64,000 nt of DNA. It comes from Trypanosoma brucei. Lineage: Eukaryota. The stretch lies in contig CP000071.1 of the NCBI GenBank assembly GCA_000002445.1, positions 1,376,001-1,440,000 of the forward strand. Direction: 5' to 3'. The notes under the pieces were generated by a model, which did not search any database, was not told where the DNA came from, and saw only the letters and a program-made list of their open reading frames with translations. This document shows, piece by piece, positions 5,500 to 42,179 of the stretch; position 1 is the stretch's first letter; the number at the start of each line of letters is the position of its first letter. A program made the translations under genes and the position numbers.

Positions 5500-5520
5500 A
5501 TTTAAGAGGTGGGTTTGCTG

Positions 5521-5533
5521 CGTGTGTACGTGT

Positions 5534-5564
<31 letters not shown>

Positions 5565-5570: not shown

Positions 5571-5585
5571 GATAGCTTGATGACT

Positions 5586-5606
5586 GAAAAGGGAAAGAAA
5601 AGAAGC
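5586..5606 (-). promoter_or_regulatory. minus-strand polypyrimidine tract plus AG, the likely spliced-leader acceptor region for AAT copy 1
   Basis: The minus strand reads tttctttcccttttcAG about 85 nt upstream of the ATG at 5499. The same element recurs at 8569-8589, 11552-11572, 14535-14555 and 17517-17537. Confidence 0.55.
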
Positions 5607-21214: not shown

Positions 21215-23399
21215 TCAGTGGTTAGTGGTGGCAGTTCAAACTCAGACAATGAAAATACACGTGCCCGTGGTAGAGAAATTTCTGAGACTGTATACATGCA
21301 TACAGAAATGAATAGACATGTCTATGTCCATGCAACCCCAGTAGTTCGCGACATTGAACACACAAGCACACTGAGTTTCATAACCAATGCTTCCCTGTCG
21401 TTGCGATAAGGGCTTCAATTCACTCTCGTAAGCGAAGCCCCTGTGTCAGACGCGCGGTAAACAGCCACAGGTATGAAGAGACTTTCTTCTCCCTAACACA
21501 ACGCGGGTAACCAACCTCAACTTTATTCTTTAAAAGCTAAATCACTTGTACACCGCAAGGGAAAACAACTCGCCACCAACATGAATACAGCTTTGTGACA
21601 TCAAGGGGTCGGAAAGCTGAAATACTTGGCCCACATTAAAGTTAAACGATCAACATACGTACGAACAACCATACATATACACTTACATGTGCAGAAAGCT
21701 GAGAAAGACGTAGACTCTTCAGATATGGAAATACTGAAGACGACGTAAGAGCGACAACAACGGATAAAGAAAGATCCCTTCTTCACAACCGCAACAGTGG
21801 CAACCAAACGGTTCGTTAAATTTTTATTCGTGATCGCAGAGTGAACAAACCATGGTTGCCCACTAACAAATATAGCAGTATCAATAACAACAACAGTCCT
21901 GACAGCCGACGCTGATACTTCCACATCCATCACAACACTAAGCACACTGGACGTACCCTAACAGTCCCTACGGGCACGTTGTCATAAAACGAGGGCCCCG
22001 GTGCTACGAGCAATAGAATACGCAAAGGTCAAAACATCAGACCCATTTCCAGCCTTTGTTTATCTGTACCTTCTGATTTTATTTATTAAGAGTGATTTTA
22101 TTGCAAAAAAAACAGGAGAAGGGGGTCGTGCTTGGGTGTCAGTGCTATGCAATGTCAAATACCTACCATGGAATCGACGTTTTCACGTGCTTCCATGTTC
22201 ATTTGTACATGCCCCTTCAATGGGGGAAAGTGGACATTCTCTCATCTCTCCTCCCCTGAGCAGGTTAAATAAAATTAAAAGCCGCTCCACGTCAATTGGG
22301 GGGGGGCACTTGGTTAAAACAAACAACTATAACCGGCTGCCTGGAGAGGAGGTTCAGCTGTGTGCGCAGCGTGGCGCGAACCATCAACTGAGTCCCTCCC
22401 CTAGGGACACGAAAAATGCAAAAGAAAACACTTAGTGGTTGCCCTTAACTCGCCTCAGAATGGTGGCAGGCTTGTCATGAAGAGTCATTCCACAGAGACT
22501 CTTTGACAGAGGGGATACGTAAGTCAATAGTGGCAAAGACATATTTGAACTAAGATGTAGTAATGTTGATTATCTTGCGTTTGTAGAGGAGTGACTGTCA
22601 AGCTTAGCGGTAAAGTGCATGAGTAGAGAGGAACATTCACAACTATTCCATTCACACTCCACCACGTGGTTCGAGATGGAGCGGTAAGTCACTGCATATC
22701 CCCCTCCTTTCTGTGGGATATACTGACGAAGAGGAACCTAACGATCGGTGACAATGGAAAAAAACAAAGGAAAGGCACACAAACTTTTCCTTTTCATTGA
22801 CAATCACCCCTTCATTCTTACTAATACCTCATTCGAGGAAGAGGACGAAACTGATCAATTTTTTTGTTTGCTAAAAGCGAAAAAAAAAACATTGTTCTTT
22901 TTTTTTTGAGTGTTTTTGCACAGCTCCTCGAGGTGCCTTGAGCGCATATACTTCAGCACAAACACTTAATTGCAAAATGAAAAAGTTAAACCTTGGACTC
23001 TGCCAAACGCGTGTGTGCATATAATTACAAAAATAACGCACGCAAAACACTTTGTTTTCAATGTAGTGGCGGGGTGCGCAGTCAATCCGGGGTGATGCGT
23101 ACGTTGCGACCGCGTTGCGCAGCATAAGTGGGGGGAGCACTCGCAGCACTCGAGGCTGTCTTATCGCACTAATAGTCACCGTGTTTCGTAGTGGGGGGAA
23201 CCAGAAAGCAACATGTCTAGCACCGGACTTCGTACTGAACACTGCGGCCTCAACAACGAAGGGGGGAATGATAATAATACATAAAAGAAGTAATAAGGAA
23301 ACTCCGCCGCCCCTACACACGAAAAGAGAATTTATTTATTTATTTTTATGCGCACCGGAGGTACTCCCACACCCAGATCAACGACGACGGCGAGACTCG

Positions 23400-26300
23400 G
23401 AGCAACCCTAACCACCCTTCCCACTCAAAACACCACTAACGGTCCCGTCCCGTTCGCGCACGGTGCGAAATAGGGTGGACGCCTCATCCCAGAACAATGT
23501 CGAGGAAAGCAAAACAACGTTGGAAACGCCGAGCTTACATCACCTATGAACACCGCCGCAGGATGGAACCCAACGAAGGAAAACAGCGACCCCCCATAAC
23601 GGCAGCAGACCCGCAATAGCCCAACAACTGCAAATCGTAAACACCGGCTGAATCAGGCACCGGACGCCTCTCCATCCGCCCCTTGGCGAAGGTATATCGT
23701 GGGGGGGCTACTGTGGCATGCCGCCGTGGCACACGAAGACCGATGAAACGGCAGAACGGTGGGGAGGATTGGGAGCAGCGTCGTCCCACCGACGCGGAAA
23801 AGAAAGGACCTTCGTCCTCTCTCTGAAGCGCTGAGGGCTACGGAAGAAACAAAATGGCCCTCAAGCGCGACCCGTAGTGCTCGCCAAAGGGGAAACGGAG
23901 AAGTAAAGGGGACCCCTCAACAGCCTACAAAGCGAAGCCCCATAGGGTTCCACCTCGTTGCCCCTATGGACAACGGGAAGGGAGAACCCGTGGACCGCGT
24001 CCACAGGAAAATTGGAGAGGGCAAAAGGGAAACAGCGCCACCGAACTCGAGACCGGAAACGCCATCCACTAGCAGCCGCCTTGGCCTAAAGTCTGGCCGC
24101 GCTGCCCCACACCGGAGGCACACGCAGACATACATTTTCAAAAGCGCCTGCTTTGACATACCTCTCCGAAACGAACGTGGAGAACCAGCACCATGCACGA
24201 TATCTACGGAGGGATTGAGTAAATCGGTGGGTACCCTGGTTCGAAAGGGGCTTTCATTTCACGTAGAGCAATCGGCAGACCAGCTCACGGCCGTCGCCCC
24301 ATAAGTAAGCGACCAGAGTTCGAGAAGCCCCGTCCCCGTTCACTCGGCGCCACTATGCCCTTATTGGCGGGAAAACGCCTGTGCTCCTTTACCGAAAGCC
24401 GGGGTGTGCAGCGGCAGCTGCAGCAGTCACTTTCGAGCTGCGGACTTGGTGAGAAAGGAAGAAAGCGAACTGCACCCAATGCGCGCTAGGATCGCTACGA
24501 ACAAGAGAATGCAAATGGGAGCATGCATCCCAGTAAGGCGAAATTGGGACAACCGGCTTGAAAGGGCACCTGGCCGGTTTGTGCCCACTTAGCCGGAAGA
24601 CGAACCATAATTTAAAATTTGCGCATTGAGAGCTAAAAGAAGGAGGGGAGCACCGACAAAAAACTGTCCAGGGTCAGCCGCAAAACACGCCTACCTTCGA
24701 CAGCCCAACGCAAAATAAACAAGGAAAAAAAAACCGTCTTCGACGGAACGTTGGAAGAGGATCGCCTTCCAGGAAAATTGACGTAAGTAGGGATTCCTCA
24801 AGAGGGCTGGAGAAAGTTCAGCGACGCCACTAGCTACGTAAGGTAGAAAGTGGGATCGTTTATCTACCCTCGACGGATGGGAAAATCAGACCAGTTTGCG
24901 CCGCTTACCACGCCCGCACCCACAGGAGACGGAGGGCCCCCTCCTATGGCCATATTGCCATGTGTTAACCGTGGAAGGGGCGGCGACGTTCTGGCACGGT
25001 GGAACTCCTGTTTCGTATACTGGTGAAGCGTTCCGTGCGAGGAAGCACCCCGCACACGTGTTCACACCGCCAGCAGACGCGTCTGCGCGAACCACCATCT
25101 GTAACGGGGAAAAAATGCAACACCGCCCGCTAGCAGCGTGCCCCACAGTGGTTGGTGGACCTCTGCTCCCGTCTTGAGTGACCACTGAAAAACCATGGAG
25201 GCGGCGTGTCCGCTGGTCCGCCACGATGGGAAAACCACATCACCACGGGCGACAGCGAGGCCGCAACCACCGGCCGCCCGGATACGAGGGAAAAGTTGTC
25301 TACACCGGCACTACGCCGCTGCAGAGGCAATCGCGCCACCGAGTGCGGGGTGGTTCCGTTGAGCGACAGCCCCTATACATCGCCCTTTGGAATTGGAAGC
25401 CTCCCGGCCCCCCCCCCCCCACACACACGCACACGATATCGGCAGGTACTGCGCCAACGCACGAAAGCGCGGACGTTCCGTCTACAAAATGCACCTCGGA
25501 CGCACGACCAACGACAGGAACCCTGGTGGCTGAACTCCGGGGCCTCCTCCATACATAATGCCCCGGGGGGAATCAAAATGACAGCGAGGTGCGGCGGTTG
25601 GAACCGGTTGTACACAAGCGGCCGGAGAGGCCGACATATTCTGATTAATGGAAAACGATGCCTTAAGAAAAGAAGCACAAGCCACCGACAGTGCCACGGT
25701 TCTCCACCTTGTAGACGAAGACGCAGCCGTGGAGCAAGGAGGGAAGGAAGGAAGGCGGAAACGACAGCTGTACACCGAGTAAAAGGAACGCCGTGCAGCC
25801 CCACACTTGAAAGCATAAGGATATTGGAATGGCCGGCTCTCTTGGAGCCTGGCACTCGCGGTGTCGGGAGAGCTCTTTAAAGCAGTATAATCTGATAAGC
25901 CCTGATTTCACAGCGGCATCACAACAAACAAACGAACAGAAGGGGAAAAACAGGCACAACCCTCGAGTAAGCAAAGACTTTTCAGGGAACTACCAAACGG
26001 GTTTCTATAGAAAAATTCAACGAATCCTTGTGACGGTCACGGCACGATCGCAACGATATGCTGGTGCGCTAAACTGGTTTTGGCGAATCCCACTCCCCCT
26101 CATCACTCTCGCGTGGATCCAGTTTTCCTTAGATTTAGGTAACGGCATGTATAAGCAAGGCGTGTGGCGGGTTTGGTTATTAATTATTACTTAGTGCGAG
26201 AGCAGGGATCGGACATGGCTAGTTTTCTTGAAGTCGGCACCCGCTGGGGTGGAGAACAAACAGACTGAGCGAAACGGACGCCACAAGATTAGTCTGCGAT

Positions 26301-27300
26301 TAAAACACTTTGCGGAGAAACCGGGGATTAACGGTCCCCTAGCCACTGGTGAACGAGAACCCAAAAAGAAAAAAGATGAAATGATGCAGCATACCACACG
26401 AGGAAAGTGGAAGTGCGGACGAGCCCCCAAGTTCGGCAATGAACTGATTGCGTTTTCCCCTTCATCAAGCAGGAGAAATCCATCACCATCGAGTTAGCTC
26501 CCGTGTAAAGGAGGAACGCAGCGATGCATGGCAGTTAGCCGGACGCCGCAAATGGAAGACAGTGCACCCTGAGGGGCACAGAGATAAATGGGCATTGGAT
26601 ACTCCCAACCCCTAACAGTAGACACTGCCGGGCCCCCCTCCTCTTTCTCGTGCGCGCGCACCGTCGCACATGTGGCAGCACTAACGATTCAGCGGAGCAC
26701 GCAATTCCTGGGGGGCTCAACGCCCCCCCCCTCGCAATCACACACACACGCACACCACCGAAAAAAACACTCCCACGTCCGGAGTGAAATCGCCTGTTGG
26801 GCCTCCGCCACACTCCCGAGCCATTCCAACCTGCAGCGGCTTCGAGACCCGACAACGGCAGTAAATCGTCATAGCAAGCGCTGCAAGGGTGAAATGGTCG
26901 TCAGGAGGATGCCCTCTGACGGCGCCGGCAGCCACGCCACAGTGTCAGAGAACCGTGCTCCGTCCAAAAGGAAGTTGAGAGGCGGTTTCCTGTTCGCGTC
27001 ATCGAAATGGAGAGAGCACTTGACATGTAACAACCAAAACGGCGATACGGAGGATCACTGGGGCTTGGGGGAGGGGGAAGTGCGCTTCCACAGCTGGGAA
27101 CGCATACTCGCCCTCAGTGTTTGCCCACTGTTCTTACTGCCAGATGGTCGAGACAGTGGGGTGACAGCACTATGCGGCCATACTGAAGGGCATGAGGGGA
27201 AGGAAAGAACTGCTGTTGGGATTATGCTGAGAACAGTGGTAAAAATGGGAGATGAGAGCGAGTTAACGAAAGGAGGGAGCCGTGGCAACTAACACAGTGC
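23400..27300. other. roughly 4-kb GC-rich island without a credible ORF, possibly a degenerate retroelement or other non-coding insert, nature unresolved
   Basis: There is a sharp rise in G+C with C-runs (25410-25421, 26680-26700). Only short overlapping ORFs occur in all six frames, with stop-free stretches in shifting plus-strand frames, and there is no intact protein. The flanks are ordinary coding or AT-rich DNA. Confidence 0.4.
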
Positions 27301-27584
27301 AGGGGAAAACGCATATCACCAGCAATCCCTTCCTTAGCTTTTGCGGGAGCATTTCATACATGCACGTAACGCATGCTTACACAGCGGTTACGGAGCAACA
27401 CCCACATCTTGACGAAGCAACGACAGAAAGAAACTGATCTCACATTCTCCACAAATTACTACCAACTGGGGTTCAAGCGCGCAACAACCCCCTAAAGTTG
27501 GTTTGTATTGCAAATGTCACGCGCGAAAGAAAGAAACAGCGAGAAAACGAGATGGCAATCCGCCAAGCAGCATGCCTGCGCCGC

Positions 27585-28851: not shown

Positions 28852-31800
28852 TTAATGTGTCTTCCTTGAAGATTCAGCAGGCGCGGGCTCACCTGCCAAA
28901 CCATTTTTTCCATCTACCCCGTTCAATTTGGACGTCGATTTGGTACCCCTCACATCGGCTATTCGGCCCCGACGATACTGCGCCGACGGACCGCGAACAA
29001 GGTCGGACAATGGCAAGGGCCGCGTCGGAACCCATGAGGCTCCATTGCTGTTATGAACCACGTCCTGCGTAGCATTATCGCGTGTCTTCTTCAATAAATC
29101 ATGTTCAACAGCGGTGTCAGCCCTGTTTTTCTCAAGAGTGGCGCGAAAGCATCGGAGGTCGCGTTCATATTTCAGCAAAAAAGTTCCGATGGAGTCAAGG
29201 ACGTACCCCTTATATCTACCGGTTTTCAGAGGTTCATCATAGTCCTCTTCCTTCTCCTCATCGGCACTTTCATCACCACCGGCTTCCTCCCCCGCACCTC
29301 CAAGCCCTGCCTCCAAGTCGCTGCCTTCACCAGTGCGCATGGCCTCCTCATGCTGCTCAAACCGCAGCAAGTCCTGTAGCGAGGGGGTCTGATCCCGCTG
29401 CTTCGAAAGCACCTTTCTAGATGCCCTCTGAAGATTTTTTAGATGAACCATAAAATCATCGATCAATTGATGTCGAGCATCATCCTCCTCCTTTTCCAAT
29501 TCTACAAAAACCTTGTGGGACACCTTCTGGACTTTTTGGGTCAAAAAGTCTTTGAGCTCAAACAACGCTTGCAGATCGCTCTTTTCCTCATTGACGATTG
29601 CTAAGCGGCTGTTGTGCTCCACACCGTATATGTCCTCCATGGCATTCTTATGTTCATGTGCCCTTCGATTTAAAAAGCGGTTAGCCAAACGTCTCCGCGC
29701 CCTATAAGCAAATATGACACTTTTGATTAAGGAGGTAGCTTCCTGCTTTTGCACCTCTTTTTTCGCCACTTGCTCATCCTTTTCGCGTTGTTCTTGGGCG
29801 GTTAGTGCATCACGTGCTGAGGTCTCACGTGCACAATTAATGGCTTTCACGGACTTCCGTTCTTCGGCTTCGATGGCATGACGCTTTTCTGTTTCTTTTT
29901 TCGAAAGAGCCACAACACACTCTATTAACCTTAGTGACAACATTTGTGCCTGCCTAAGGTCCTCTATCTCCTCCTTTTCGCCGGCCTCCACCTCACGACG
30001 AGCACCCGGCTCCTCCTCTCCAACCAAACGTTTCACCTTCTCAGCTGCTCTCCTTCTATTTTCCATCGTTTTCTCCTCATCCTCACACGTTAGCATTATG
30101 TGATCCCTGTCGTGTCTCTCGTCCTCTTCATGGAGAGATCGTGAGCGATTTTCTAATACCAGTAGTTCCTCCAATTCAGCATCGAACTCTTCCATACGTC
30201 GACGGCGTAGTGCCAACAATTCATCTCCTTCTGGCCGATCTCCCTTTTCGGCGCTTCCTTCAGCGTCACGCTCCGATGCACATAGAGCGTCCGCTTCACG
30301 GTGGTCAGTGAGACCGCTTATACTACCATCGTTAACGATAGCACCTTCACCTTCTACAACATCAGTAACGCCACCATCGCCTTCGGCGTCCTCAGCATCA
30401 GCCGCACATATTGACCCACTTTTTCCATCATCACAGACACCCCCAGCCACGGCCACCGAGCTTGTCTCGTCTCCAACAACTTCAGCACCAGCAGCCGTCT
30501 TTAAGTTATCGCTCTCTTCACCAACTCCAGCATCAATGGAAGGAGCCAGAGCACCTTCGGAAGCATCATCGTGATCCCCCTTTACTCCAACAGCAGCGTC
30601 GTCAACTACAGTTTCCGCATCACCAACAAGCGCCTCCTCCTCACCGTCTACGGCGGCACCTCCATCGGAGAAAAAGTGTGTTTTCCTTCTTTTCTGGCCT
30701 CTCATTTTGTGCAACTTTCTCCGCGAGCACGCATCGAAGCTCACCACCTCTGTTTCCTTAAAACACTCCATGGCACTTTCGTTGGGCATCAGCATCAAAG
30801 AAGATAAATGTTGATTTTGATCGGCATCCACAATACTCAACCTACTCTTTCGCGGCGACACGTTAAAAGACTTTCTAGAGCCAGTGCCAACCAAATTAGA
30901 AGCTCCCTCGGCAGCATTACCACCGGAAGGCGTCATAAGAATAACAAAAGACATAGCCCTCTTTCTTCCATCACCCCGAGCGTCGCAACAAGAAAGATAT
31001 TCACCACGCCTATTCATTTCCTCCTCCAACTCACGCAGCGCGTCGGCGTTCTTGACGGGATCACGCATCAGTTCGTCATACCGAGCGCACTGCTGTTGGA
31101 AAGCCGGGTCACGAAGCAACATAGTCAAATCATTAAGACCATCAAGAGAAGAAAGGAATGGATACTTCAAAAGCAACGCACACCTAATCGACTCATTAAG
31201 CGCCAGCTCATCAGCACGAGCACGCAACGCCTCCTCCAACTCTGTCAGTCGCTCCGCATTTGCCTCGGCGTCCTCAAGCGCGGAGAGGTGCTCATTAAAC
31301 AATTTCTGATACCCATCATCTTTGGAAAGCGGTATGTCACTGAGGAGCACGCACTTACGATCTTCGTACAAAAGGAAGGGATTGCACGCACGCACATACT
31401 CATTGGCGTCTTCACTCTCCTTCTCAGCCAGTCTTGCAAGACGAGCAAGGTCCTTAACCCGCTGCAACATCTCTTTTTCAATCGCTACTGCGCCTTTGGC
31501 ACCACCAGCAAGTTTTGCCTGTCGAGCACGACGACGACACAGTTGAGAAAACATTGCATCATCATTGATTGGAAGCTCACCAAGAGGAATACCCATTACT
31601 CGTTTCGGAAGGAAGGGATACTGTTTATGGACCGCATCCGTTTTCGTAGCATTCTCCTCGGCCAATTGCGTCACGAGCGCCTTCATTTTCTCCTCCATAG
31701 CAGCAATTGTCTCGGAATTGCCTTCCCAATCGAGGCGTAGCTCGTCCAGCTCATTCGACAGGTCACGGAACTCCTGTTGCTGAGCAGGTCGCACATCTGC

Positions 31801-34800
31801 GAGACACACACCACGCACAGGCTCTTCGGGCAAGAACGGGTAACGCTCACGGAGGTCCTCAGCACGGACTGCGGCACGGAGCCTAGAGGAACGGAGGTCA
31901 CTCACGATTTTGTCAGCAGCGTCACGCAATAATTTCTCCTGCTGAGCCCGGGCCGTCGGATCCATATTAGATGCATCCTGCGTGTAGCGAGATGCTAGCT
32001 CCGCAAATGTGGGATCTGACATGAGATGCAACTCGCCCAGCGGGATCCCTTTCAAGGTGCGTCCCAGAAACGGGTAAGCTGCTGCAAGGGACTCCTCTTC
32101 GGCCTTGCGTTCTTCAACAATCGCCCTCACTCGCTTGGCCAGTCCAGCCTCAGCCTCTCGAATAACCTCTGCATTTACTTCGTTAGGTCCCTTCGCTTTC
32201 TCTTCATCGCGTCTCTTCATGAGTTCACAGAATTCGTCGTCATCCTCCAACGTCAAGTCCCGCGGAACCTCAGCCAGCAGCGAAGGGTCAACAAAGGAGT
32301 ACAGTGAAGCATCGCGTGCAGCTGCTCGCTGCTCTGCTGATTGGAGCTTCAGAACGTCTCCTGCAATTTGGCCTGCTCGTCGGCAGAGTTGCTCATATAT
32401 TTGCTTCTCGAGGGGTGATTCGGGCTTTCTACCATCGGGAACAAGTTCGTTGTACCGCGCCAGCAACTCCTGGAAGTACGGGTCATCCTCAAGGTACAAC
32501 TCAGCCTGCGACACACCCAAAAACGTCTCCGGAAGAAAAGGGTACACAACAGCAGCAACGCTCCCCCTAGCGCCAGGGAGTCCACCAGCAAAACTTTCAC
32601 CATCAGAACTAGTCCTTGCACCCTTTGCTGCACTTGTTCCATCTAACGCACCTGCACCTCCCACACTGCCAGACGCGGTCGGGTCACCACCAGCTGCACT
32701 CTTCATGCTCAAGCTCATCTCACGTTCAAGCTGGCGCAGCGCGTCGGCGTTCTTGACGGGATCACGCATCAGTTCGTCATACCGAGCGCACTGCTGTTGG
32801 AACACCGGGTCATGTAATAGCTTCTCCGACAACTCGAGACCGTCTTGTGAGGCAAGGAATGGACATTTATTAAGCAACGCGCGCCTAACCGACTCATTAA
32901 GCGCCAGCTCATCAGCACGAGCACGCAACGCCTCCTCCAGCTCTGTCAGTCGCTCCGCATTTGCCTCAGCGTCCTCAAGCGCGGAGAGGTGCTCATTAAA
33001 CAATTTCTGATACCCATCATCTTTGGAAAGCGGTATGTCACTGAGGAGCACGCACTTACGATCTTCGTACAAAAGGAAGGGATTGCACGCACGCACATAC
33101 TCATTGGCGTCTTCACTCTCCTTCTCAGCCAGTCTTGCAAGACGAGCAAGGTCCTTAACCCGCTGCAACATCTCTTCCTCAGTCGCTACCGCATCTTTGC
33201 CACCGTCGCTGCTACTCTTCTGCTGCAACCAGCGCTGGCCCAACTGAGAAAACATTGCATCATCATTGATTGGAAGCTCACCAAGAGGAATACCCATTAC
33301 TCGTTTCGGAAGGAAGGGATACTGTTTATGGACCGCATCCGTTTTCGTAGCATTCTCCTCGGCCAATTGCGTCACGAGCGCCTTCATTTTCTCCTCCATA
33401 GCAGCAATCGCCTCTGCGTTGCCTGCCGGATCGCGGCGTAGCTCGTCCAGCTCATTCGACAGGTCACGGAACTCCTGTTGCTGAGCAGGTCGCACATCTG
33501 CGAGACACACACCACGCACAGGCTCTTCGGGCAAGAACGGGTAACGCTCACGGAGGTCCTCAGCACGGACTGCGGCACGGAGCCTAGAGGAACGGAGGTC
33601 ACTCACGATTTTGTCAGCAGCGTCACGCAATAATTTCTCCTGCTGAGCCCGGGCCGTCGGATCCATATTAGATGCATCCTGCGTGTAGCGAGATGCTAGC
33701 TCCGCAAATGTGGGATCTGACATGAGATGCAACTCGCCCAGCGGGATCCCTTTCAAGGTGCGTCCCAGAAACGGGTAAGCTGCTGCAAGGGACTCCTCTT
33801 CGGCCTTGCGTTCTTCAACAATCGCCCTCACTCGCTTGGCCAGTCCAGCCTCAGCCTCTCGAATAACCTCTGCATTTACTTCGTTAGGTCCCTTCGCTTT
33901 CTCTTCATCGCGTCTCTTCATGAGTTCACAGAATTCGTCGTCATCCTCCAACGTCAAGTCCCGCGGAACCTCAGCCAGCAGCGAAGGGTCAACAAAGGAG
34001 TACAGTGAAGCATCGCGTGCAGCTGCTCGCTGCTCTGCTGATTGGAGCTTCAGAACGTCTCCTGCAATTTGGCCTGCTCGTCGGCAGAGTTGCTCATATA
34101 TTTGCTTCTCGAGGGGTGATTCGGGCTTTCTACCATCGGGAACAAGTTCGTTGTACCGCGCCAGCAACTCCTGGAAGTACGGGTCATCCTCAAGGTACAA
34201 CTCAGCCTGCGACACACCCAAAAACGTCTCCGGAAGAAAAGGGTACACAACAGCAGCAACGCTCCCCCTAGCGCCAGGGAGTCCACCAGCAAAACTTTCA
34301 CCATCAGAACTAGTCCTTGCACCCTTTGCTGCACTTGTTCCATCTAATGCACCTGCACCTCCCACACTGCCAGACGCGGTCGGGTCACCACCAGCTGCAC
34401 TCTTCATGCTCAAGCTCATCTCACGTTCAAGCTGGCGCAGCGCGTCGGCGTTCTTGACGGGATCACGCATCAGTTCGTCATACCGAGCGCACTGCTGTTG
34501 GAACACCGGGTCATGTAATAGCTTCTCCGACAACTCGAGACCGTCTTGTGAGGCAAGGAATGGACATTTATTAAGCAACGCGCGCCTAACCGACTCATTA
34601 AGCGCCAGCTCATCAGCACGAGCACGCAACGCCTCCTCCAGCTCTGTCAGTCGCTCCGCATTTGCCTCAGCGTCCTCAAGCGCGGAGAGGTGCTCATTAA
34701 ACAATTTCTGATACCCATCATCTTTGGAAAGCGGTATGTCACTGAGGAGCACGCACTTACGATCTTCGTACAAAAGGAAGGGATTGCACGCACGCACATA

Positions 34801-37800
34801 CTCATTGGCGTCTTCACTCTCCTTCTCAGCCAGTCTTGCAAGACGAGCAAGGTCCTTAACCCGCTGCAACATCTCTTCCTCAGTCGCTACCGCATCTTTG
34901 CCACCGTCGCTGCTACTCTTCTGCTGCAACCAGCGCTGGCCCAACTGAGAAAACATTGCATCATCATTGATTGGAAGCTCACCAAGAGGAATACCCATTA
35001 CTCGTTTCGGAAGGAAGGGATACTGTTTATGGACCGCATCCGTTTTCGTAGCATTCTCCTCGGCCAATTGCGTCACGAGCGCCTTCATTTTCTCCTCCAT
35101 AGCAGCAATCGCCTCTGCGTTGCCTGCCGGATCGCGGCGTAGCTCGTCCAGCTCATTCGACAGGTCACGGAACTCCTGTTGCTGAGCAGGTCGCACATCT
35201 GCGAGACACACACCACGCACAGGCTCTTCGGGCAAGAACGGGTAACGCTCACGGAGGCCTTCAGCACGGACTGCGGCACGGAGCCTAGAGGAACGGAGGT
35301 CACTCACGATTTTGTCAGCAGCGTCACGCAATAATTTCTCCTGCTGAGCCCGGGCCGTCGGATCCATATTAGATGCATCCTGCGTGTAGCGAGATGCTAG
35401 CTCCGCAAATGTGGGATCTGACATGAGATGCAACTCGCCCAGCGGGATCCCTTTCAAGGTACGTCCCAGAAACGGGTAAGCTGCTGCAAGGGACTCCTCT
35501 TCGGCCTTGCGTTCTTCAACAATCGCCCTCACTCGCTTTGTTTTGTTAAGTTCTATTTGCTGCTTCTTTTCGTTGTCTGTTACTGTTCTTTGTTCTTCCT
35601 TCAGTAGCTGCTGTATTTCGTTGTCTTCGTATATGTTTAAGGATGCTATTTTTATACCCTTTACTGTCTTTTGTATATTCTGAAAATTTTTCATAAGTCT
35701 TCCTACCTTTCTTTCTTCTGCTTCGATCTCGCTGCGGAAGGCTTTGTGCAGCTGTGATTTTCTCTTCGCCATTCTTGTTTGAAGGATGCGCTGCAATTTG
35801 ATACCTGCGGGAGTACCTTCTTCCTTAATTCTTTGATATTCGCGATGGAGTTCCTGGTAATATTTATCATTCATTATTTCCTCCTCAATGTAAGTGTTTA
35901 TTTCGTCTTGAGAAAGTCCAGTATCATGAGTATCCTTTATTTCATCATCACTGACATCCGACGGTGTTGATGTCATTATCTCCTGCGTCGTTCTGGCCAG
36001 CTCAGCTTCAAGCCTCTGTAGCTTCTCAGCGTTTTTGTCTATATCGTCCATGAGTTCATCATGATCGCCAACAAGTTTTGCGACAAGTGGGTTGTGGAGC
36101 ATGTTGGGGTCGATGTTTCGCCCAAGCATCGGGTATGTTTTGCGCAGCTCATCTACTTCGCGCACCTTGGCTGCCCGACCCTTGCGTTCATTTTCAAGTA
36201 TGTCGCGCACGCTATTAAGGAGATCGGGATGAACTGCATCAGGCGATCCGTCGCCTGTCATTGCAAGGACTCCTTGGCTTTCTAGGAGACGAATGTCCTC
36301 TAGACTAAGTGGCTTCAGTTCGTGGAACATCTCCATTATCTTTTCAATCTTCTTTATCTCCTCCAGGGCAATTTCATCTGCTCTACATGCAAGTCGGAAT
36401 CGAACACTAGCGACGGAGTCTTCATCCAATTTGAATCGTTGCAGAAGAGATTTGTACTCAGCAAGAAGCTGGTTGAACAGGTTGTCCTCGCTCAAGCGAA
36501 TGTGACGCAAAGGAAAACACTTCCGCGTTGTGTAAATAAGAAAGGGGTTTCCGGAGAGTACAGCATCATCGGCATCGGCGAGCAGAACTTCACTTAAGTG
36601 TGCGCCAGACGCAAGTTGCACAACCCTTGACTGAAGCACAGTTTCTTTTTTCGTTGTGGTCTCCTTCTCAGAAGCGGCAAATACTTCATCATCTTTGATT
36701 GGAAGCTCACCAAGAGGAATACCCATTACTCGTTTCGGAAGGAAGGGATACTGTTTATGGACCGCATCCGTTTTCGTAGCATTCTCCTCGGCCAATTGCG
36801 TCACGAGCGCCTTCATTTTCTCCTCCATAGCAGCAATCGCCTCTGCGTTGCCTGCCGGATCGCGGCGTAGCTCGTCCAGCTCATTCGACAGGTCACGGAA
36901 CTCCTGTTGCTGAGCAGGTCGCACATCTGCGAGACACACACCACGCACAGGCTCTTCGGGCAAGAACGGGTAACGCTCACGGAGGTCTTCACTCTCGATG
37001 GCTTCACGCCATTGGCGCACATTGCTCTCACGAGCGATGGCAAGTGCGTGGTTTAGCATCTCCCTTACAAGCCGCTTTCGCCGAAGATCGTTGGAGGTAC
37101 CAAGTGAGTTGGGGAGCTTTGAATACTGCTCTGCTTTCTGCGCAAACTTTTGGTTTTCTTCCAAATGCATGGTTGACGTATCTATACCTTCCATCCTACT
37201 TGGAATAAAGGGATATTTTTGGTTGTGCTCTTTGATCTGCGTCGTGCGCCTCACGGCAAGCCAAGCCACACGGTCGTTGGCGCGCGCGTTGAGCTTGTCT
37301 ACTTCCGCTACGACGACTGGTTTCATTGCGGTAAGTTTCTCACGAGCTATCACAAGAGCCATGAACTCATTATCCCCTTCCACGTCAAGGGCATCCAGGG
37401 TGAATCCGAGGTGCCGACGGCTTACAAATGGGTATTTGGCCTCTGAACGCTGTCGCCTTCTGAAACGGTTTGCATTTACCTTCCGTACCCAAACATTCAT
37501 CTGGAGTACCCGCTCCTCCATCTGATGTGTAAGCCCCAGTGCCGTTGGTGAATCATCTGCGTTGTTCTTGAACTCGGCATTGCGGCGTTGGGATAAAACC
37601 ACGTAGTAATCATCACGCATGTTCGGCACGGTTTCCACTACAAAATTCTCTGTTGTGAAACTTTCAACGTCGTAGTTCAGCCTCTGCAGTTCATTATCGT
37701 CGTGGCGCCGTGCCGCAAGGTGATGCACCGCCACCGCCAGTTCTGATTGCAACTTGCTATCAGTATTCTTCTTCGCTAACTGATCCATCAGCGTTGCCGC

Positions 37801-40800
37801 CGCCGAGTCCTCATGCAACCGTAACATAGAAAGTCGTTGATGATAAGGCCTTTCCTCAAGAAAGGGAAACTGCTGATGTAACTCCTCGTCGTCCACCGCG
37901 AGGCACGTGCGCACGATGGAAGCCCGTTCCCACATGGCTTCAAGCTTCGCAGATATTAGGGCATGGATCCATTCTGCTTCGGCGTCCCCACGGGAAACAC
38001 AAAGGCGATGCACGCGAAGAAGGTCATGCAGGTGTGTATCTCCGGCAAGATCGGTAGCAGAAACGGAGTAGCGCTTTGATGACGAAAGCCAGGGCGACAA
38101 CTCCTTCCGCCACCGAAAGGCGTCGAGCTCGATCTCATCAACACGGCTGGCCAGCTGACCCTGAATTTGCACAAGGCCTGGTCCTAAAGATTGTGACATG
38201 GTGCATTTTCGTATCTGGTCAATTAGTGTTCTAACTTGTTCATCCTCCAACACGTAAATCCATGGTATCGGAAGCATGAGGTTGACGTACCCCCCGTGCG
38301 TATCGCTAAACTCCTGTTCCTGGCGGTCGACAAAAGCCCGTTCAAGAGCTGTATCCTTTGCCTTCTTGGCAACATACTCACATATAGCATACTCCAAGGC
38401 GTTCGTTTGTTTAGAATCATCGCTGCTGCGCAACTTATGCACAAGATCCATAAAAAATCCATCGTCTTCAAGTCTGAGGCTTGCCGTCCGCACCCCATGG
38501 ACCTCGGCGCGAAGGAAGGGGTACCGTTTTAGTATATCACCCTCTTGGATGGAACGATGTAGCTCCCACATCCGCTCCTTCATTGCCTGTTCCAGTTGCC
38601 TGCTCTCAGTTGTGTCCTTGCTTGCTCGCGCCCGCTGATGGGCAAGTTCAACGAACACCTCATCTTCCAGCAGCCGAACATCAACAAATGGAAAGCTGTC
38701 GACACGAGTTGCAAGGAAAGGATACCTCTGCAAGATCCCACGATATACCACTGGCCTGGAAGAGAGGTGCTGCTCGAGATAACGAAGGTTCTCTAGATAC
38801 GCCAAAAAATCAGGATCGTCTTTCGGTACACCGGCTTTGTCGAACGCAAGACCGGCCCTCTTGAGCGACTCTCCCGCATCACTTAAGCGATTAAGGTCAA
38901 TTTCAATCGCACCTTTGTTATTTTGTACGACAGCATACTCCCTACTCTGAACACCAAATAAGTCTGCCGCCTTATCTCCGGCCTCCCGCAGCAACGTCAT
39001 ACAGTGCTCTACATATTTTTCACGATCCCATGAGCGGTAAATGTGTGCACCATCAGTTAAAAGGGACGGCAAGTCGCGCGATTCAGTTGGTTTCTTCTTG
39101 CTAATTGTAATCGCGGTGAGAAGTACACGTATTGCGTCCTCGTACCAACCTTCAGACTCAAGTTGCAGACTTAAGTCCCACAGATAGTACATAAAATAGT
39201 CTGACGCCCAACCAATGGTACTGAGTTCGACAGAATGGCTCACGAGCTCCTTTGTGTTAACGGAGCAAGAGGGAAGAAGTTGTTTACACTGAAGAAGCCC
39301 CTTGTACGGCTGAAGATGCAGCCATGCACCGTGCTCACTCTTAAGATAGCCCGGAAGCTTTTCGATAGCACTATAGAAGTGCTTCGCAGCCTCCTCGACA
39401 CAGCTTCTGTAAGTGGCCAGCTCGTCAGACTGATACAACGTCGCCACGCGCAGCAGCCAGAAGCCATACTCAATGTGAAGGCGGCCTTGCGTTACAGGGC
39501 CCGTCAATTCTTCGAAACCGCGCATTGTGTCAGGAAACAAGCCCCGGCCCTCCGCAATGTAGTCTTTTTCCATAGTTGCAAAGCACACCTCGCACACGCT
39601 ACGGCGCGAATAGAGGGGTGACAGGCTCACAGGAGCACACAGTTCCATGTGCGCTTTTGCAGTTTCACGTACTAGGGCAAGTGCTTCATCATAATGCCCA
39701 TCCCAGCACGCCACCTTCCATCGGACCGGCAGACAAAAGGCATACCGATAACCATCTTGTGTAACGATTGTCCTGTATTTTTCACTTAGTGCGCGAACAT
39801 ACTGAGGATCTATCAATTTGGGTAATACACTGGCGTTGACGTGGGCGTGCCATCTCATTACTGTGTGATTTTTGGAAGTTTTTTCAATGGAAACTCCAAT
39901 AAGGGCACATATGCGCGCCACAATATCCGCCTTCCTCCCCATACGTATGTCTGTTAGGGACTTGATGAGATCCTCATCGGAATCTATTATGCCATATTTC
40001 TTGGCTACAACCTCCAAAAAGATACTGCGGAAATTATCCAGGTTTGTGAAGGCTGCCCCGATGTGTTTCGAGACGGTGCCGGCCAGTATATCGTCATCGT
40101 ACGCCACGCGTTTTCCTTGAACTTCCAAATAGAACTCCTGTTTCACCGACCGTGCAATCATTTCAATGGATATCAACTCCCTCACTCGTTGTGTCACATC
40201 AGGGGAATACCTCCCCACACCCTCAGTTTTACACACCACTTGCTTCAGGAGGCACATGTTGATGCCGATTGAGTGCAGCACATCGCACAGTTTCCTCAAG
40301 CGCTCGCCGTTTGAGCGAGACTCGCTGTCCACACAAGCGTGCACAATGCGGTCGAGCACTTCAGTGTTGTCAAGCAACGAAACTGTGTCCATATGACCAT
40401 CTGTCACATTGCCACAAAGCCTCAGCATCTCTTGGCGCTTCATGATTGTATCGTCAACAAACAACGGGGTTAGAGTTGAGTTGGAATTGGTTAGGTACAG
40501 GCGGCCATCCAATCCCTCATACACCTCAAGAGTGCCGTCGGGAAATGGGATATTGAGAGCATCCGCCATGTGGAGGATCTCCGCCTCGACCTCGCTGTCA
40601 TCTGTGGATTCAGCCCCATAAAGGCGGGTCGGGTTGGCCGACATAGGGACTAAGGCCTGCGCAAGCACAGGCATTCCGCGGTAGAAAATCATGCAGGAGA
40701 GCGGCACAGTCAACAGGCGGCTACGACTCTGCAGCACACCGCGGAGTGAGGCCACATAGTTCCTTCCCGAACGGCTGTCAGGTAGAACACGGAAGAAAAT

Positions 40801-41307
40801 GTTGTCCACGCGATAACACTGCAGAAATTTCGGGAGCTCCCGAGGCCCGTTATCGTCGAGCGTCACGATCTGCTTCGCCTTGCGGGTGGCCTCCTCCACG
40901 AACTCCTTCTCAATCCGGCGAAGCGCCTCCATCCGGCTCACAGCCTGGGAAATGGTGTTGTCCTCCGCTTCCCACGCAAACTGGAACTCTGCATTCCAAT
41001 TCCTAGCATACCGCGTGATGTCAGCACAAGACGCAAGAAATGGCTTCGGTGCCGTCTGCTGCATCGGAAACGCAGCTATTTTTCTGATGGAAAGTCTATG
41101 CCGGGACGCCTCCAGCATTGAAACGTGACGTTGTGCTGTACGCTGGGAACTAGTGCTTGTCAATCGCGAATAAGAGGATCGCACATCCTCGATTGGAACT
41201 CCCTGGTTTTCGGGGGTGGTAGGAAACATTACACCCGGCTTCCGGTCCCGTGCATTCGAATCAACTGATGGATTACGGCGCTGTTCATTTTGATTGCGCC
41301 GTCTCAT
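28852..41307 (-). CDS. giant repeat protein (4,151 aa) with a non-repetitive N-terminal ~1,000 aa that may carry a CLU-like domain (tentative), then more than 25 copies of a ~20-aa YPFL motif, and an acidic low-complexity C-terminus
   Basis: This is a single uninterrupted ORF starting at the ATG at 41307 (MRRRNQ). Motif instances include LRERYPFLPEEPVRGVCLADV, HKQYPFLPKRVMGIPLGELPI, AAAYPFLGRTLKGIPLGELHL, LQRYPFLATRVDSFPFVDVRLL and NQKYPFIPSRMEGIDTSTMHL. The N-terminal region contains a G-L-D-G-R-L-Y-L-T segment reminiscent of the CLU-domain GxDGRxYxLD signature. The C-terminus is rich in E, D, G, A and V. Confidence 0.75.
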   Translation of the reverse strand: MRRRNQNEQRRNPSVDSNARDRKPGVMFPTTPENQGVPIEDVRSSYSRLTSTSSQRTAQRHVSMLEASRHRLSIRKIAAFPMQQTAPKPFLASCADITRYARNWNAEFQFAWEAEDNTISQAVSRMEALRRIEKEFVEEATRKAKQIVTLDDNGPRELPKFLQCYRVDNIFFRVLPDSRSGRNYVASLRGVLQSRSRLLTVPLSCMIFYRGMPVLAQALVPMSANPTRLYGAESTDDSEVEAEILHMADALNIPFPDGTLEVYEGLDGRLYLTNSNSTLTPLFVDDTIMKRQEMLRLCGNVTDGHMDTVSLLDNTEVLDRIVHACVDSESRSNGERLRKLCDVLHSIGINMCLLKQVVCKTEGVGRYSPDVTQRVRELISIEMIARSVKQEFYLEVQGKRVAYDDDILAGTVSKHIGAAFTNLDNFRSIFLEVVAKKYGIIDSDEDLIKSLTDIRMGRKADIVARICALIGVSIEKTSKNHTVMRWHAHVNASVLPKLIDPQYVRALSEKYRTIVTQDGYRYAFCLPVRWKVACWDGHYDEALALVRETAKAHMELCAPVSLSPLYSRRSVCEVCFATMEKDYIAEGRGLFPDTMRGFEELTGPVTQGRLHIEYGFWLLRVATLYQSDELATYRSCVEEAAKHFYSAIEKLPGYLKSEHGAWLHLQPYKGLLQCKQLLPSCSVNTKELVSHSVELSTIGWASDYFMYYLWDLSLQLESEGWYEDAIRVLLTAITISKKKPTESRDLPSLLTDGAHIYRSWDREKYVEHCMTLLREAGDKAADLFGVQSREYAVVQNNKGAIEIDLNRLSDAGESLKRAGLAFDKAGVPKDDPDFLAYLENLRYLEQHLSSRPVVYRGILQRYPFLATRVDSFPFVDVRLLEDEVFVELAHQRARASKDTTESRQLEQAMKERMWELHRSIQEGDILKRYPFLRAEVHGVRTASLRLEDDGFFMDLVHKLRSSDDSKQTNALEYAICEYVAKKAKDTALERAFVDRQEQEFSDTHGGYVNLMLPIPWIYVLEDEQVRTLIDQIRKCTMSQSLGPGLVQIQGQLASRVDEIELDAFRWRKELSPWLSSSKRYSVSATDLAGDTHLHDLLRVHRLCVSRGDAEAEWIHALISAKLEAMWERASIVRTCLAVDDEELHQQFPFLEERPYHQRLSMLRLHEDSAAATLMDQLAKKNTDSKLQSELAVAVHHLAARRHDDNELQRLNYDVESFTTENFVVETVPNMRDDYYVVLSQRRNAEFKNNADDSPTALGLTHQMEERVLQMNVWVRKVNANRFRRRQRSEAKYPFVSRRHLGFTLDALDVEGDNEFMALVIAREKLTAMKPVVVAEVDKLNARANDRVAWLAVRRTTQIKEHNQKYPFIPSRMEGIDTSTMHLEENQKFAQKAEQYSKLPNSLGTSNDLRRKRLVREMLNHALAIARESNVRQWREAIESEDLRERYPFLPEEPVRGVCLADVRPAQQQEFRDLSNELDELRRDPAGNAEAIAAMEEKMKALVTQLAEENATKTDAVHKQYPFLPKRVMGIPLGELPIKDDEVFAASEKETTTKKETVLQSRVVQLASGAHLSEVLLADADDAVLSGNPFLIYTTRKCFPLRHIRLSEDNLFNQLLAEYKSLLQRFKLDEDSVASVRFRLACRADEIALEEIKKIEKIMEMFHELKPLSLEDIRLLESQGVLAMTGDGSPDAVHPDLLNSVRDILENERKGRAAKVREVDELRKTYPMLGRNIDPNMLHNPLVAKLVGDHDELMDDIDKNAEKLQRLEAELARTTQEIMTSTPSDVSDDEIKDTHDTGLSQDEINTYIEEEIMNDKYYQELHREYQRIKEEGTPAGIKLQRILQTRMAKRKSQLHKAFRSEIEAEERKVGRLMKNFQNIQKTVKGIKIASLNIYEDNEIQQLLKEEQRTVTDNEKKQQIELNKTKRVRAIVEERKAEEESLAAAYPFLGRTLKGIPLGELHLMSDPTFAELASRYTQDASNMDPTARAQQEKLLRDAADKIVSDLRSSRLRAAVRAEGLRERYPFLPEEPVRGVCLADVRPAQQQEFRDLSNELDELRRDPAGNAEAIAAMEEKMKALVTQLAEENATKTDAVHKQYPFLPKRVMGIPLGELPINDDAMFSQLGQRWLQQKSSSDGGKDAVATEEEMLQRVKDLARLARLAEKESEDANEYVRACNPFLLYEDRKCVLLSDIPLSKDDGYQKLFNEHLSALEDAEANAERLTELEEALRARADELALNESVRRALLNKCPFLASQDGLELSEKLLHDPVFQQQCARYDELMRDPVKNADALRQLEREMSLSMKSAAGGDPTASGSVGGAGALDGTSAAKGARTSSDGESFAGGLPGARGSVAAVVYPFLPETFLGVSQAELYLEDDPYFQELLARYNELVPDGRKPESPLEKQIYEQLCRRAGQIAGDVLKLQSAEQRAAARDASLYSFVDPSLLAEVPRDLTLEDDDEFCELMKRRDEEKAKGPNEVNAEVIREAEAGLAKRVRAIVEERKAEEESLAAAYPFLGRTLKGIPLGELHLMSDPTFAELASRYTQDASNMDPTARAQQEKLLRDAADKIVSDLRSSRLRAAVRAEDLRERYPFLPEEPVRGVCLADVRPAQQQEFRDLSNELDELRRDPAGNAEAIAAMEEKMKALVTQLAEENATKTDAVHKQYPFLPKRVMGIPLGELPINDDAMFSQLGQRWLQQKSSSDGGKDAVATEEEMLQRVKDLARLARLAEKESEDANEYVRACNPFLLYEDRKCVLLSDIPLSKDDGYQKLFNEHLSALEDAEANAERLTELEEALRARADELALNESVRRALLNKCPFLASQDGLELSEKLLHDPVFQQQCARYDELMRDPVKNADALRQLEREMSLSMKSAAGGDPTASGSVGGAGALDGTSAAKGARTSSDGESFAGGLPGARGSVAAVVYPFLPETFLGVSQAELYLEDDPYFQELLARYNELVPDGRKPESPLEKQIYEQLCRRAGQIAGDVLKLQSAEQRAAARDASLYSFVDPSLLAEVPRDLTLEDDDEFCELMKRRDEEKAKGPNEVNAEVIREAEAGLAKRVRAIVEERKAEEESLAAAYPFLGRTLKGIPLGELHLMSDPTFAELASRYTQDASNMDPTARAQQEKLLRDAADKIVSDLRSSRLRAAVRAEDLRERYPFLPEEPVRGVCLADVRPAQQQEFRDLSNELDELRLDWEGNSETIAAMEEKMKALVTQLAEENATKTDAVHKQYPFLPKRVMGIPLGELPINDDAMFSQLCRRRARQAKLAGGAKGAVAIEKEMLQRVKDLARLARLAEKESEDANEYVRACNPFLLYEDRKCVLLSDIPLSKDDGYQKLFNEHLSALEDAEANAERLTELEEALRARADELALNESIRCALLLKYPFLSSLDGLNDLTMLLRDPAFQQQCARYDELMRDPVKNADALRELEEEMNRRGEYLSCCDARGDGRKRAMSFVILMTPSGGNAAEGASNLVGTGSRKSFNVSPRKSRLSIVDADQNQHLSSLMLMPNESAMECFKETEVVSFDACSRRKLHKMRGQKRRKTHFFSDGGAAVDGEEEALVGDAETVVDDAAVGVKGDHDDASEGALAPSIDAGVGEESDNLKTAAGAEVVGDETSSVAVAGGVCDDGKSGSICAADAEDAEGDGGVTDVVEGEGAIVNDGSISGLTDHREADALCASERDAEGSAEKGDRPEGDELLALRRRRMEEFDAELEELLVLENRSRSLHEEDERHDRDHIMLTCEDEEKTMENRRRAAEKVKRLVGEEEPGARREVEAGEKEEIEDLRQAQMLSLRLIECVVALSKKETEKRHAIEAEERKSVKAINCARETSARDALTAQEQREKDEQVAKKEVQKQEATSLIKSVIFAYRARRRLANRFLNRRAHEHKNAMEDIYGVEHNSRLAIVNEEKSDLQALFELKDFLTQKVQKVSHKVFVELEKEEDDARHQLIDDFMVHLKNLQRASRKVLSKQRDQTPSLQDLLRFEQHEEAMRTGEGSDLEAGLGGAGEEAGGDESADEEKEEDYDEPLKTGRYKGYVLDSIGTFLLKYERDLRCFRATLEKNRADTAVEHDLLKKTRDNATQDVVHNSNGASWVPTRPLPLSDLVRGPSAQYRRGRIADVRGTKSTSKLNGVDGKNGLAGEPAPAESSRKTH
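31030..35535. repeat. near-identical 1,701-bp (567-codon) tandem repeat inside the giant CDS, about 2.65 copies
   Basis: The ORFs 32105..33010 and 33806..34711 and their neighbours are identical at an offset of 1701 bp. Copy boundaries are at about 31030, 31310, 33011, 34712 and 35535. A dispersed partial copy of about 310 bp lies at 36690-37000. Confidence 0.9.
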
Positions 41308-42179
41308 TTCAACGAAACTGACAGCAAAACAGACACAAAAATGAGTACTAAGTTACCTGAACCTCCCGGTACTTTGGTTTTTTTTCTTTCTATTATCTAA
41401 AAACAAAGCCGAAGACCTGCCGGGCAGACGGGTGCGCGAAGAAAAAAAATGCCGCAACAACGAAGGATGTTTGCTTCAAAGGCTTCGCAAAAAAAAAAAA
41501 ACAAAGTTTCTAGTCTGCCTCCGAAGATGATAATGACAGCAAGTTAAATAAACAAAAAGAGGTAAACTTCAACATGTGAAATAATAACCCTCGTGTGGCG
41601 TTTCACCACCGTTGGGATTCGTAACATCGTGGGAGGAGGGTACGCAGAAGTGATCCCCTCATTGTCCCGCAAAGCACCTAACGCAGCGGCAAAAAGGAAG
41701 TGCTTCGCAGCCATCAATACGCCGTAGCACCACTGCTGCAGGGAAAAAATAACATTCTCCCCAACATACAGAGCCATACACATCATAAGTTTCCCCACCG
41801 ATACCCACCACCACCACCACCTCTAACTGAAGCACTTTGGTCAAATTCACAAAACGAACCGTTCCCACCTGCCAGTCCACCTCATTAACACACCGGCCCC
41901 ACTTCGCATTAATGACTAACGCTGATCACCCAACCCCCGGAACAGAGATAAGTGAACAAACCCGCGTGTGGCCGAGTGAGCATCGCGTACACACAAGAAT
42001 GGGCAACTAGTTGCTCCTGACACGGTAAGCAAAAAAAAAACTCTATAGTGAACAAGCGCATGAGCTATTCGTGGTAACATTTCCACACAGCCGGCTATCC
42101 AACCCCTCAACATACATTACCATCACCGTACCGCTATTATTTGTTTTCCTCCGAGCATCGCGCCACAACGTATGAACTG

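Follow-up and report, generated by a model that had tools for sequence, protein, structure and literature searches.

Concerted evolution as a probable explanation for the ancient higher-order tandem repeat of Trypanosoma brucei FLAM3

The 64,000-nucleotide stretch of T. brucei DNA analyzed here (the window) contains a very long gene in which a 1,701-bp segment is repeated almost without change, which raises the question of whether such near-identity reflects a recent expansion, an error of assembly, or an old repeat whose copies are kept alike. The comparisons below argue strongly for the last of these: the array is very probably an ancient higher-order tandem repeat that has been homogenised by recombination (concerted evolution).

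The FLAM3 gene and its array

The minus-strand open reading frame at 28852-41307 (4,151 aa plus stop, taken from the open reading frame list and its translation) was an exact full-length match to XP_847308.1 of T. brucei brucei strain TREU927 in a protein collection look-up. This gene is Tb927.8.4780, which encodes FLAM3 (Flagellar Member 3) on TREU927 chromosome 8, and the mass calculated from its sequence, 468.1 kDa, equals the published 468 kDa. FLAM3 was described by Rotureau et al. 2014 and Sunter et al. 2015 (PMC4541047) as a protein of the flagellar domain of the flagellum attachment zone (FAZ); its knock-down leads to a shorter FAZ, and it is a key determinant of flagellum attachment and of trypomastigote/epimastigote shape in T. 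brucei. Its repeats are already published (given as '~1.7 kb (567 amino acids) repeats' and '~2.7x567 aa' in Sunter et al. 2015, PMC4541047), so finding them alone adds no new biology. The copy-number differences between assemblies, the explicit evidence for concerted evolution, and an older block with a co-converted 305-bp piece were not found in the FLAM3 papers and represent a small comparative addition.

According to Pfam, an N-terminal CLU domain (PF13236, residues 103-242, minus strand 40582-41001; E 6.2e-13, 49.5 bits against a cut-off of 24) is followed by DUF7623/GM6-like repeats, with PF24610 (DUF7623) matching 25 stretches along the protein (616.9 bits). A weak match to eIF3_p135 (19.5 bits) lay under its 22-bit cut-off, and no calpain family was present among the Pfam matches at E <= 0.1. 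The translated C-terminal region (28855-31022, minus strand) is acidic, of low complexity and non-repeated, and no identity at period 567 was found past residue ~3428.

Near-identical 1,701-bp tandem repeats had been proposed by the initial annotation at 31030-35535, in about 2.65 copies, and self-identity at this period was indeed seen from 31023 to 33844 (+1701 = 35545), which covers 4,523 bp or 2.66 copies. As 1701 = 3 x 567, the period is in frame, and the repeat is, as had been suggested, a 567-codon unit within the 4,151-aa reading frame. No N occurs in the window, and the reading frame stays open across the array. Tandem Repeats Finder reported small internal repeats only and missed this period because its maximum was 500. 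When one unit was compared with the gene by BLAST, three pieces were returned in gene order (34425-35538, 32724-34424, and 31034-32723). The first copy (34425-35545, minus strand) is partial, covering unit columns 588-1701, and differs from the second by 3 nt (at 35258, 35260, and 35461, opposite 33557, 33559, and 33760 in the second) and 1 aa (its BLAST piece, 34425-35538, has 3 mismatches in 1,114 nt). The second (32724-34424, minus strand) is a full 1,701 bp in both the self-identity scan and BLAST. The last, an edge copy (31023-32723, minus strand; BLAST piece 31034-32723, ~1,690 nt, 95.9% identity), equals the second except at one site up to column 990 and then carries four diverged patches at 31708-31733, 31476-31543, 31102-31188, and 31023-31033. 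The earlier remark that only the last partial copy has a few substitutions needs correction. The change from ELRRDPAGNAEA to ELRLDWEGNSET was found in the last copy, but this C-terminal copy is nearly full and differs from the second in 84 columns (substitutions and small indels) spread over the four patches, with 33 amino acid differences. By eye, a diverged patch of this copy shares an RRRxRQ motif with T. cruzi and T. theileri, as it might if it kept the ancestral state, but the interior version has about as many other residues in common with them.

Two nested levels of repetition, with about seven sub-repeats per 567 aa, had also been noticed, and this description fits well. One block in module phase (32077-33777, minus strand) comprises seven DUF7623 ('xPFL') sub-repeats, recognizable by AYPFLG, RYPFLP, QYPFLP, CNPFLL, KCPFLA, VYPFLP, and LYSFVD, whose lengths are 78, 74, 79, 72, 108, 81, and 75 aa. 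The modules are strongly diverged, with a mean pairwise amino acid identity of 26% (17-41% between adjacent modules), whereas the blocks differ at 3 of 1,114 nucleotides; near-identity is present at the 567-aa period alone. The AlphaFold2 model of the block had a pLDDT of 76.7.

An older, diverged copy of the block (block 0) precedes the array at about residues 1283-1923 (35539-37461, minus strand), as detected by BLASTP against a doubled block (34.5% amino acid identity over 653 columns, E 1.5e-91, collinear). Inside it lies a 305-bp piece (36687-36991, minus strand) that is 99.3% identical to the array copies (2 mismatches in 305), and its flanks are unrelated to the array (25-31% identical).

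Age of the block and homogenisation of its copies

In T. cruzi Dm28c, FLAM3 (5,565 aa) contains these seven modules in unchanged order, repeated every 1,809 bp, and the copies in the locus examined (~1.9 copies, without N runs) are 99.06% identical to each other. Between T. cruzi and T. brucei, the blocks share only 51% of amino acids, 59% of nucleotides, and 40% of third positions, compared with 99.7-100% nucleotide identity among interior copies within T. brucei. Judged from these sequences, the block architecture is older than the T. brucei / T. cruzi split, and the presence of the same array in T. cruzi implies that the repeat is old and has been homogenised within each genome. The 305-bp piece repeats this pattern: its offset is 1731 in T. 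cruzi and 1734 in T. theileri, and within each of T. brucei, T. cruzi, and T. theileri its identity to the array reaches 99% or more, compared with 66-73% between species. In Leishmania sp. Ghana, FLAM3 has only 219-bp single-module repeats, in part of the gene within the examined locus. A 1,977-bp repeat of 99.95% identity in T. theileri was not counted as evidence; it lies on the flanks of an N gap, in a region orthologous to the segment before the array, suggesting that it is probably a scaffolding duplication.

Differences between strains point in the same direction. At alignment column 736, all three TREU927 copies have one base and all gambiense and equiperdum copies have the other, and columns 1005 and 1634 divide the strains in this way too, apart from one or both of the edge copies. 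Such strain-specific variants are few (one clean column and two with edge-copy exceptions); their occurrence in every copy requires homogenisation after the strains diverged. The edge copies escape homogenisation, with 84 differing columns in the last TREU927 copy versus 3 between the other two, and the upstream block 0 is 34% identical to the block. In T. b. equiperdum IVM-t1, the last copy has the interior sequence in two of its four patches, which is apparently the result of gene conversion.

A partly conjectural scenario can be proposed from these observations. Seven anciently diverged DUF7623 modules make up the 567-aa block, of which 2.65 copies follow one old diverged block. Near-identity within a genome probably persists because misaligned copies keep recombining, through unequal crossing-over and gene conversion, and the same recombination would gain or lose whole in-frame blocks, each of 567 aa and 62.8 kDa. 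The helical modules may form a long scaffold or spacer that functions jointly with ClpGM6, a related repeat protein. Papers on KIN-E and cAMP-BP1 contained no dissection of the FLAM3 repeats and mentioned no scaffold role for them. As concerted evolution inside coding sequence, the array is a clean textbook case.

Copy number and competing readings

The number of blocks differs between three Trypanozoon assemblies in whole 1,701-bp steps: 2.65 in TREU927, 3.65 in T. b. gambiense DAL972, and 4.65 in T. b. equiperdum IVM-t1. The expectation that copy number would change in 567-aa steps agrees with these exact multiples, within a comparison in which two of the three assemblies have flaws. In DAL972 the array is interrupted by 100 N, and IVM-t1 is a MiSeq/PacBio hybrid draft built with only 7,508 PacBio reads that shows single-base indels in the repeats and splits FLAM3 into three gene models; some of the copy-number differences could therefore be assembly error.

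Two other readings of the near-identity were considered. A recent duplication of the block in the T. brucei lineage, with identity simply reflecting youth, would be compatible with interior copies that differ at 0-3 sites, and the fact that very closely related subspecies differ in copy number does suggest that single gain or loss events are recent. Nevertheless, T. cruzi carries this seven-module block in tandem as well, in near-identical copies of its own, the arrangement of the 305-bp piece is common to three species, and strain-distinguishing variants occur in all copies. The recent in-frame expansion that the initial annotation had read from the near-identity is accordingly not the best interpretation; it is largely refuted by the T. 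cruzi array, and we regard it as very unlikely. A spurious duplication of a single-copy segment during assembly, of which the T. theileri repeat beside an N gap looks like an example, is hardly credible here, as at least 2.65 copies were found in three independent Trypanozoon assemblies, the T. cruzi array lies in a locus without N runs, the copies have a few distinguishing variants and the edge copy is distinct, and Sunter et al. 2015 (PMC4541047), who had cloned and tagged the gene, reported the repeats.

The opposite error, a collapse of the TREU927 reference, deserves more weight; the real array would then hold more blocks than the 2.65 seen (for example 3.65-4.65), and the protein would exceed 4,151 aa. 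The most copies were found in IVM-t1, a hybrid and partly long-read assembly, with an intermediate number in DAL972, and TREU927 keeps the minimum interior, one full copy between two edge copies, as a collapse would leave. Moreover, a contig of the short-read T. equiperdum OVI assembly begins inside the repeat, FLAM3 repeat fragments in T. rangeli, T. cruzi CL, T. grayi, and T. theileri lie on tiny or gapped contigs, and the related ClpGM6 repeat region has been stated to be collapsed in the TREU927 assembly. On the other hand, the window contains no N and its array is in frame throughout, the IVM-t1 count depends on the small PacBio read set, and the compared strains belong to different subspecies, so true polymorphism would explain the copy differences equally well. 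Collapse is thus possible but somewhat doubtful, and the original concern over copy number has some support in that assemblies disagree and short-read or draft ones break or have gaps in the repeat. It is also conceivable, if rather improbable, that block number is truly polymorphic among Trypanozoon (2.65-4.65 blocks, ~468 to 594 kDa) and, as FLAM3 level and ClpGM6 set FAZ length, might adjust the architecture of the FAZ or the shape of the cell from one strain or subspecies to another. If so, the TREU927 reference would represent either the shortest allele or a collapsed one.

These considerations have practical consequences. The reference length of 4,151 aa (468 kDa) may fail for other strains, and even for TREU927, and doubt about FLAM3 length bears on tagging, RNAi design, proteomics, and size estimates. 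Because FLAM3 is broken up or cut short in short-read and low-coverage assemblies, tables of its orthologues are unreliable.

Related proteins and genomic neighbourhood

The DUF7623 module family of FLAM3 is shared with ClpGM6 of T. brucei and the H49 calpain-like protein of T. cruzi, and FLAM3 was in fact discovered because it is homologous to the GM6 repeat (Sunter et al. 2015, PMC4541047). ClpGM6 and FLAM3 both reside in the flagellar domain of the FAZ, and the protein level of each depends on the other (Sunter et al. 2015, PMC4541047). The near-identical GM6 repeats are collapsed in assemblies and have been attributed to unequal crossing-over or gene conversion. The two proteins are organized differently: in ClpGM6, which has calpain-like domains, one 68-aa module recurs at least 55 times, whereas FLAM3 contains 2-5 copies of a seven-module 567-aa block and, unlike ClpGM6/H49, has a CLU domain and no calpain domain in Pfam. 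The FLAM3 block also gave a 34% identity match to an Angomonas calpain-like peptidase. The CLU domain (PF13236) is shared with the clustered-mitochondria proteins CluA, CLUH, and TIF31, which are soluble mitochondrial-distribution factors, whereas FLAM3 belongs to the flagellar cytoskeleton and has DUF7623 repeats.

An analogy may be drawn with nebulin, another giant cytoskeletal protein, in which short modules are arranged seven per super-repeat. The triplicate region of human NEB contains near-identical multi-module copies whose number varies and which are difficult to assemble. Nebulin is an animal actin-binding protein with exon-built repeats and is unrelated to FLAM3 in sequence and fold; no homology is claimed.

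In word-indexed protein searches, ~700-aa CLU proteins retrieved with an N-terminal FLAM3 query (44% identity) were rejected as CLU paralogues rather than true FLAM3 orthologues, the C-terminal query gave no matches, and the block query gave fragments only; the window's own protein cluster was not returned by any of these three queries. Genes for a kinesin and for RRM, MIF4G, prohibitin, WD40, and Nop-domain proteins lie upstream of FLAM3 in the window, and a Rab GTPase gene lies downstream. This neighbourhood is found in the same order in IVM-t1 and partially in DAL972, T. theileri, and T. cruzi, and an extra ~700-aa CLU paralogue is present upstream of FLAM3 in non-brucei species.

The FLAM3 gene and its nested repeats

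A very long ORF on the minus strand of the window (28852-41307, 4,151 aa), recovered from the ORF list and by translation, corresponds by exact-sequence look-up to XP_847308.1 of Trypanosoma brucei brucei TREU927 (2.48-Mb contig), and neighbouring ORFs also match TREU927 proteins. The computed mass of its product is 468.1 kDa, a cluster-mate carries the annotation 'Flagellar Member 3', and Pfam assigned to it a CLU domain near the N-terminus as well as 25 DUF7623 stretches. FLAM3 (Tb927.8.4780), a protein of 468 kDa, localises to the flagellar domain of the flagellum attachment zone (FAZ); its large repeats, their likeness to the 68-aa ClpGM6 repeats, and its N-terminal CLU domain were described by Sunter et al. 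(PMC4541047). The 567-aa repeats are therefore already known and were rediscovered here; the modest additions are a cross-assembly series of copy numbers, evidence of concerted evolution, and a diverged older block (block 0) with a co-converted 305-bp piece.

Self-comparison at a 1,701-nt offset placed the array at 31023-35545 (4,523 bp, approximately 2.65-2.66 copies), the unbroken identity over 31023-33844 carrying the repeat to 35545, and the window contains no Ns. BLAST of one repeat unit against the FLAM3 gene delimited three minus-strand pieces, in gene order a partial first copy (34425-35538; 1,114 nt, 99.73% identity, 3 mismatches), a full second copy (32724-34424), and a last copy of about 1,690 nt (31034-32723; 95.9% identity). 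Since 1,701 is 3 x 567, the repeat stays in frame. Copies 1 and 2 are one residue apart at the protein level, and the last copy has 33 different residues. Each block comprises seven xPFL modules of 72-108 aa with a mean mutual identity of only 26%.

Offset comparison, BLAST, and module identities thus bear out the near-identical, in-frame 1,701-bp tandem repeats with nested xPFL modules described in the initial annotation, an observation that is confirmed even though its interpretation is only partly supported. The few substitutions attributed to the last copy do occur (such as ELRRDPAGNAEA to ELRLDWEGNSET among its residue differences), but they understate a C-terminal edge copy with 84 differing columns clustered in four patches, and the description also has to include an extra 305-bp piece (36687-36991) that is 99.3% identical to the array. 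Plus-strand antisense ORFs of 150-310 aa at 30808-35142 recur with the 1,701-bp period (e.g., 32105-33010 and 33806-34711); these arise from the repeat and its codon composition and are no sign of genes.

An old block with signatures of concerted evolution

Recent expansion, which had been proposed as the cause of the near-identity, does not account for it when T. cruzi is compared. In FLAM3 of T. cruzi Dm28c (5,565 aa; the examined locus is free of N runs), the block again comprises these seven modules in unchanged order and repeats every 1,809 bp, and its visible copies share 99.06% identity. Between T. brucei and T. cruzi the blocks align collinearly, with 51% protein, 59% nucleotide, and 40% third-codon-position identity. 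Copies that are near-identical within species but diverged between them indicate that the array is old and has been homogenised separately in each lineage, so that near-identity is not evidence for a young duplication. The examined part of Leishmania sp. Ghana FLAM3 (L006:20371-21327), unlike the 567-aa block organisation of T. brucei, contains 219-bp (73-aa) single-module tandem repeats that are 97-99% identical.

Signatures of concerted evolution were found in shared variants, the edge copy, block 0, and the 305-bp piece. Interior copies are 0-9 nt apart in an alignment of every array copy of TREU927, T. b. gambiense DAL972, and T. b. equiperdum IVM-t1. Column 736 separates TREU927, all of whose copies have one base, from gambiense and equiperdum, all of whose copies have the other; columns 1005 and 1634 divide the strains likewise, one or both edge copies excepted. 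As is typical of an edge copy, the last copy has interior-identical stretches broken by patches of about 50% divergence, and that of IVM-t1 carries interior-copy sequence in two of the four patches. Directly upstream of the array lies block 0 (residues 1283-1918), an older block that is collinear with the array block but has diverged to 34% identity. Embedded in it is the 305-bp piece, whose flanks are unrelated to the array. The piece matches the array at 99% identity or more within each of T. brucei, T. cruzi, and T. theileri, whereas comparisons between species give only 66-73%; its offset is conserved (1728, 1731, and 1734 bp, respectively). Unequal crossing-over and gene conversion, already proposed as the cause for the related H49/ClpGM6 repeats, probably homogenise the array copies.

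Copy number and assembly

The initial annotation also anticipated copy-number change in in-frame steps and an assembly-prone repeat. The differences between TREU927, DAL972, and IVM-t1 are indeed all whole multiples of 1,701 bp, and fragility is evident in several assemblies: the short-read T. equiperdum OVI contig starts within the last copy, in its repeated part, short or gapped contigs hold the fragments of FLAM3 repeats from T. rangeli, T. cruzi CL, T. grayi, T. conorhini, and T. theileri, and DAL972 (3.65 copies, gene model of 4,684 aa) has a 100-N run within its first copy. This run (L002:1860-1959) takes the place of exactly 100 nt without shifting the repeat register, which suggests a gap that was sized or masked and not one of unknown length. 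In the MiSeq/PacBio hybrid assembly of IVM-t1 (4.65 copies), FLAM3 (L001:10001-25853) has been split into three gene models (2,418, 1,715, and 1,055 aa), its frame being interrupted by single-base gaps at alignment column 157 in copy 2 and column 507 in the last copy. Uncorrected PacBio indels are the probable cause, although the gene might still be a real pseudogene.

The concern that the TREU927 array is itself collapsed has some support. Its interior is the minimum of one full copy, fewer than in DAL972 or IVM-t1, and the ClpGM6 repeats were stated to be collapsed in the same assembly; however, the comparison strains belong to different subspecies, and IVM-t1 drew on only 7,508 PacBio reads. 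We therefore regard collapse as possible but somewhat improbable. On assemblies alone, it looks the same as true polymorphism between strains (2.65, 3.65, and 4.65 copies).

Proposed role and gene neighbourhood

An AlphaFold2 model of one block (mean pLDDT 76.7, pTM 0.64) predicts for each module a short beta bridge at the xPFL motif, then a short and a long helix, and disorder in the Gly/Ala/Ser-rich insert of module 5. FLAM3 enters the flagellum as cargo of the kinesin KIN-E and co-precipitates with ClpGM6, the two proteins being mutually dependent; papers on KIN-E and cAMP-BP1 contain no dissection of the FLAM3 repeats. Together the modules might build an extended, helical scaffold within the flagellar domain of the FAZ, to which each block would add its computed 62.8 kDa.

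All neighbours of FLAM3 share the minus strand with it, the arrangement seen in a trypanosomatid polycistron, and encode five tandem amino-acid transporters, a Rab-like GTPase, Nop-domain, WD40, MIF4G, and RRM proteins, a prohibitin, a kinesin, and a family-B DNA polymerase. The transporter genes occupy five tandem units of about 2,983 bp (4103-18960, 99-100% identical), each with one Aa_trans ORF (4123-5721, 532 aa; 7120-8496, 10103-11479, 13086-14462, and 16068-17444, 458 aa each; all minus strand). This is a second near-identical array in the window, as open to collapse or copy-number change as that of FLAM3. Between it and the Rab gene, a relatively GC-rich region (21300-27500, up to 0.56) has no long minus-strand ORF, and its plus-strand ORFs of 181-234 aa have no Pfam match.

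Only 872 bp (41308-42179) separate FLAM3 from the Nop-domain gene in T. brucei. At the corresponding position in T. theileri (L005:4515-12115), Leishmania sp. Ghana (L006:2384-12073), and T. cruzi (L008:10001-12121) lies a CLU-domain paralogue of the FLAM3 N-terminus (about 700 aa, 44% identity to T. brucei FLAM3), accompanied in the first two by a gene of 1,714-1,780 aa with faint eIF3_p135/TPR matches in the T. theileri copy and no Pfam match in that of Leishmania sp. Ghana. Both genes appear to be missing from this locus in T. brucei. A 503-bp stretch of the T. theileri CLU paralogue (L005:10049-10551 vs. L005:13285-13784) is 96.8% identical to the FLAM3 N-terminal part, which, from sequence similarity, suggests gene conversion between the adjoining paralogues.
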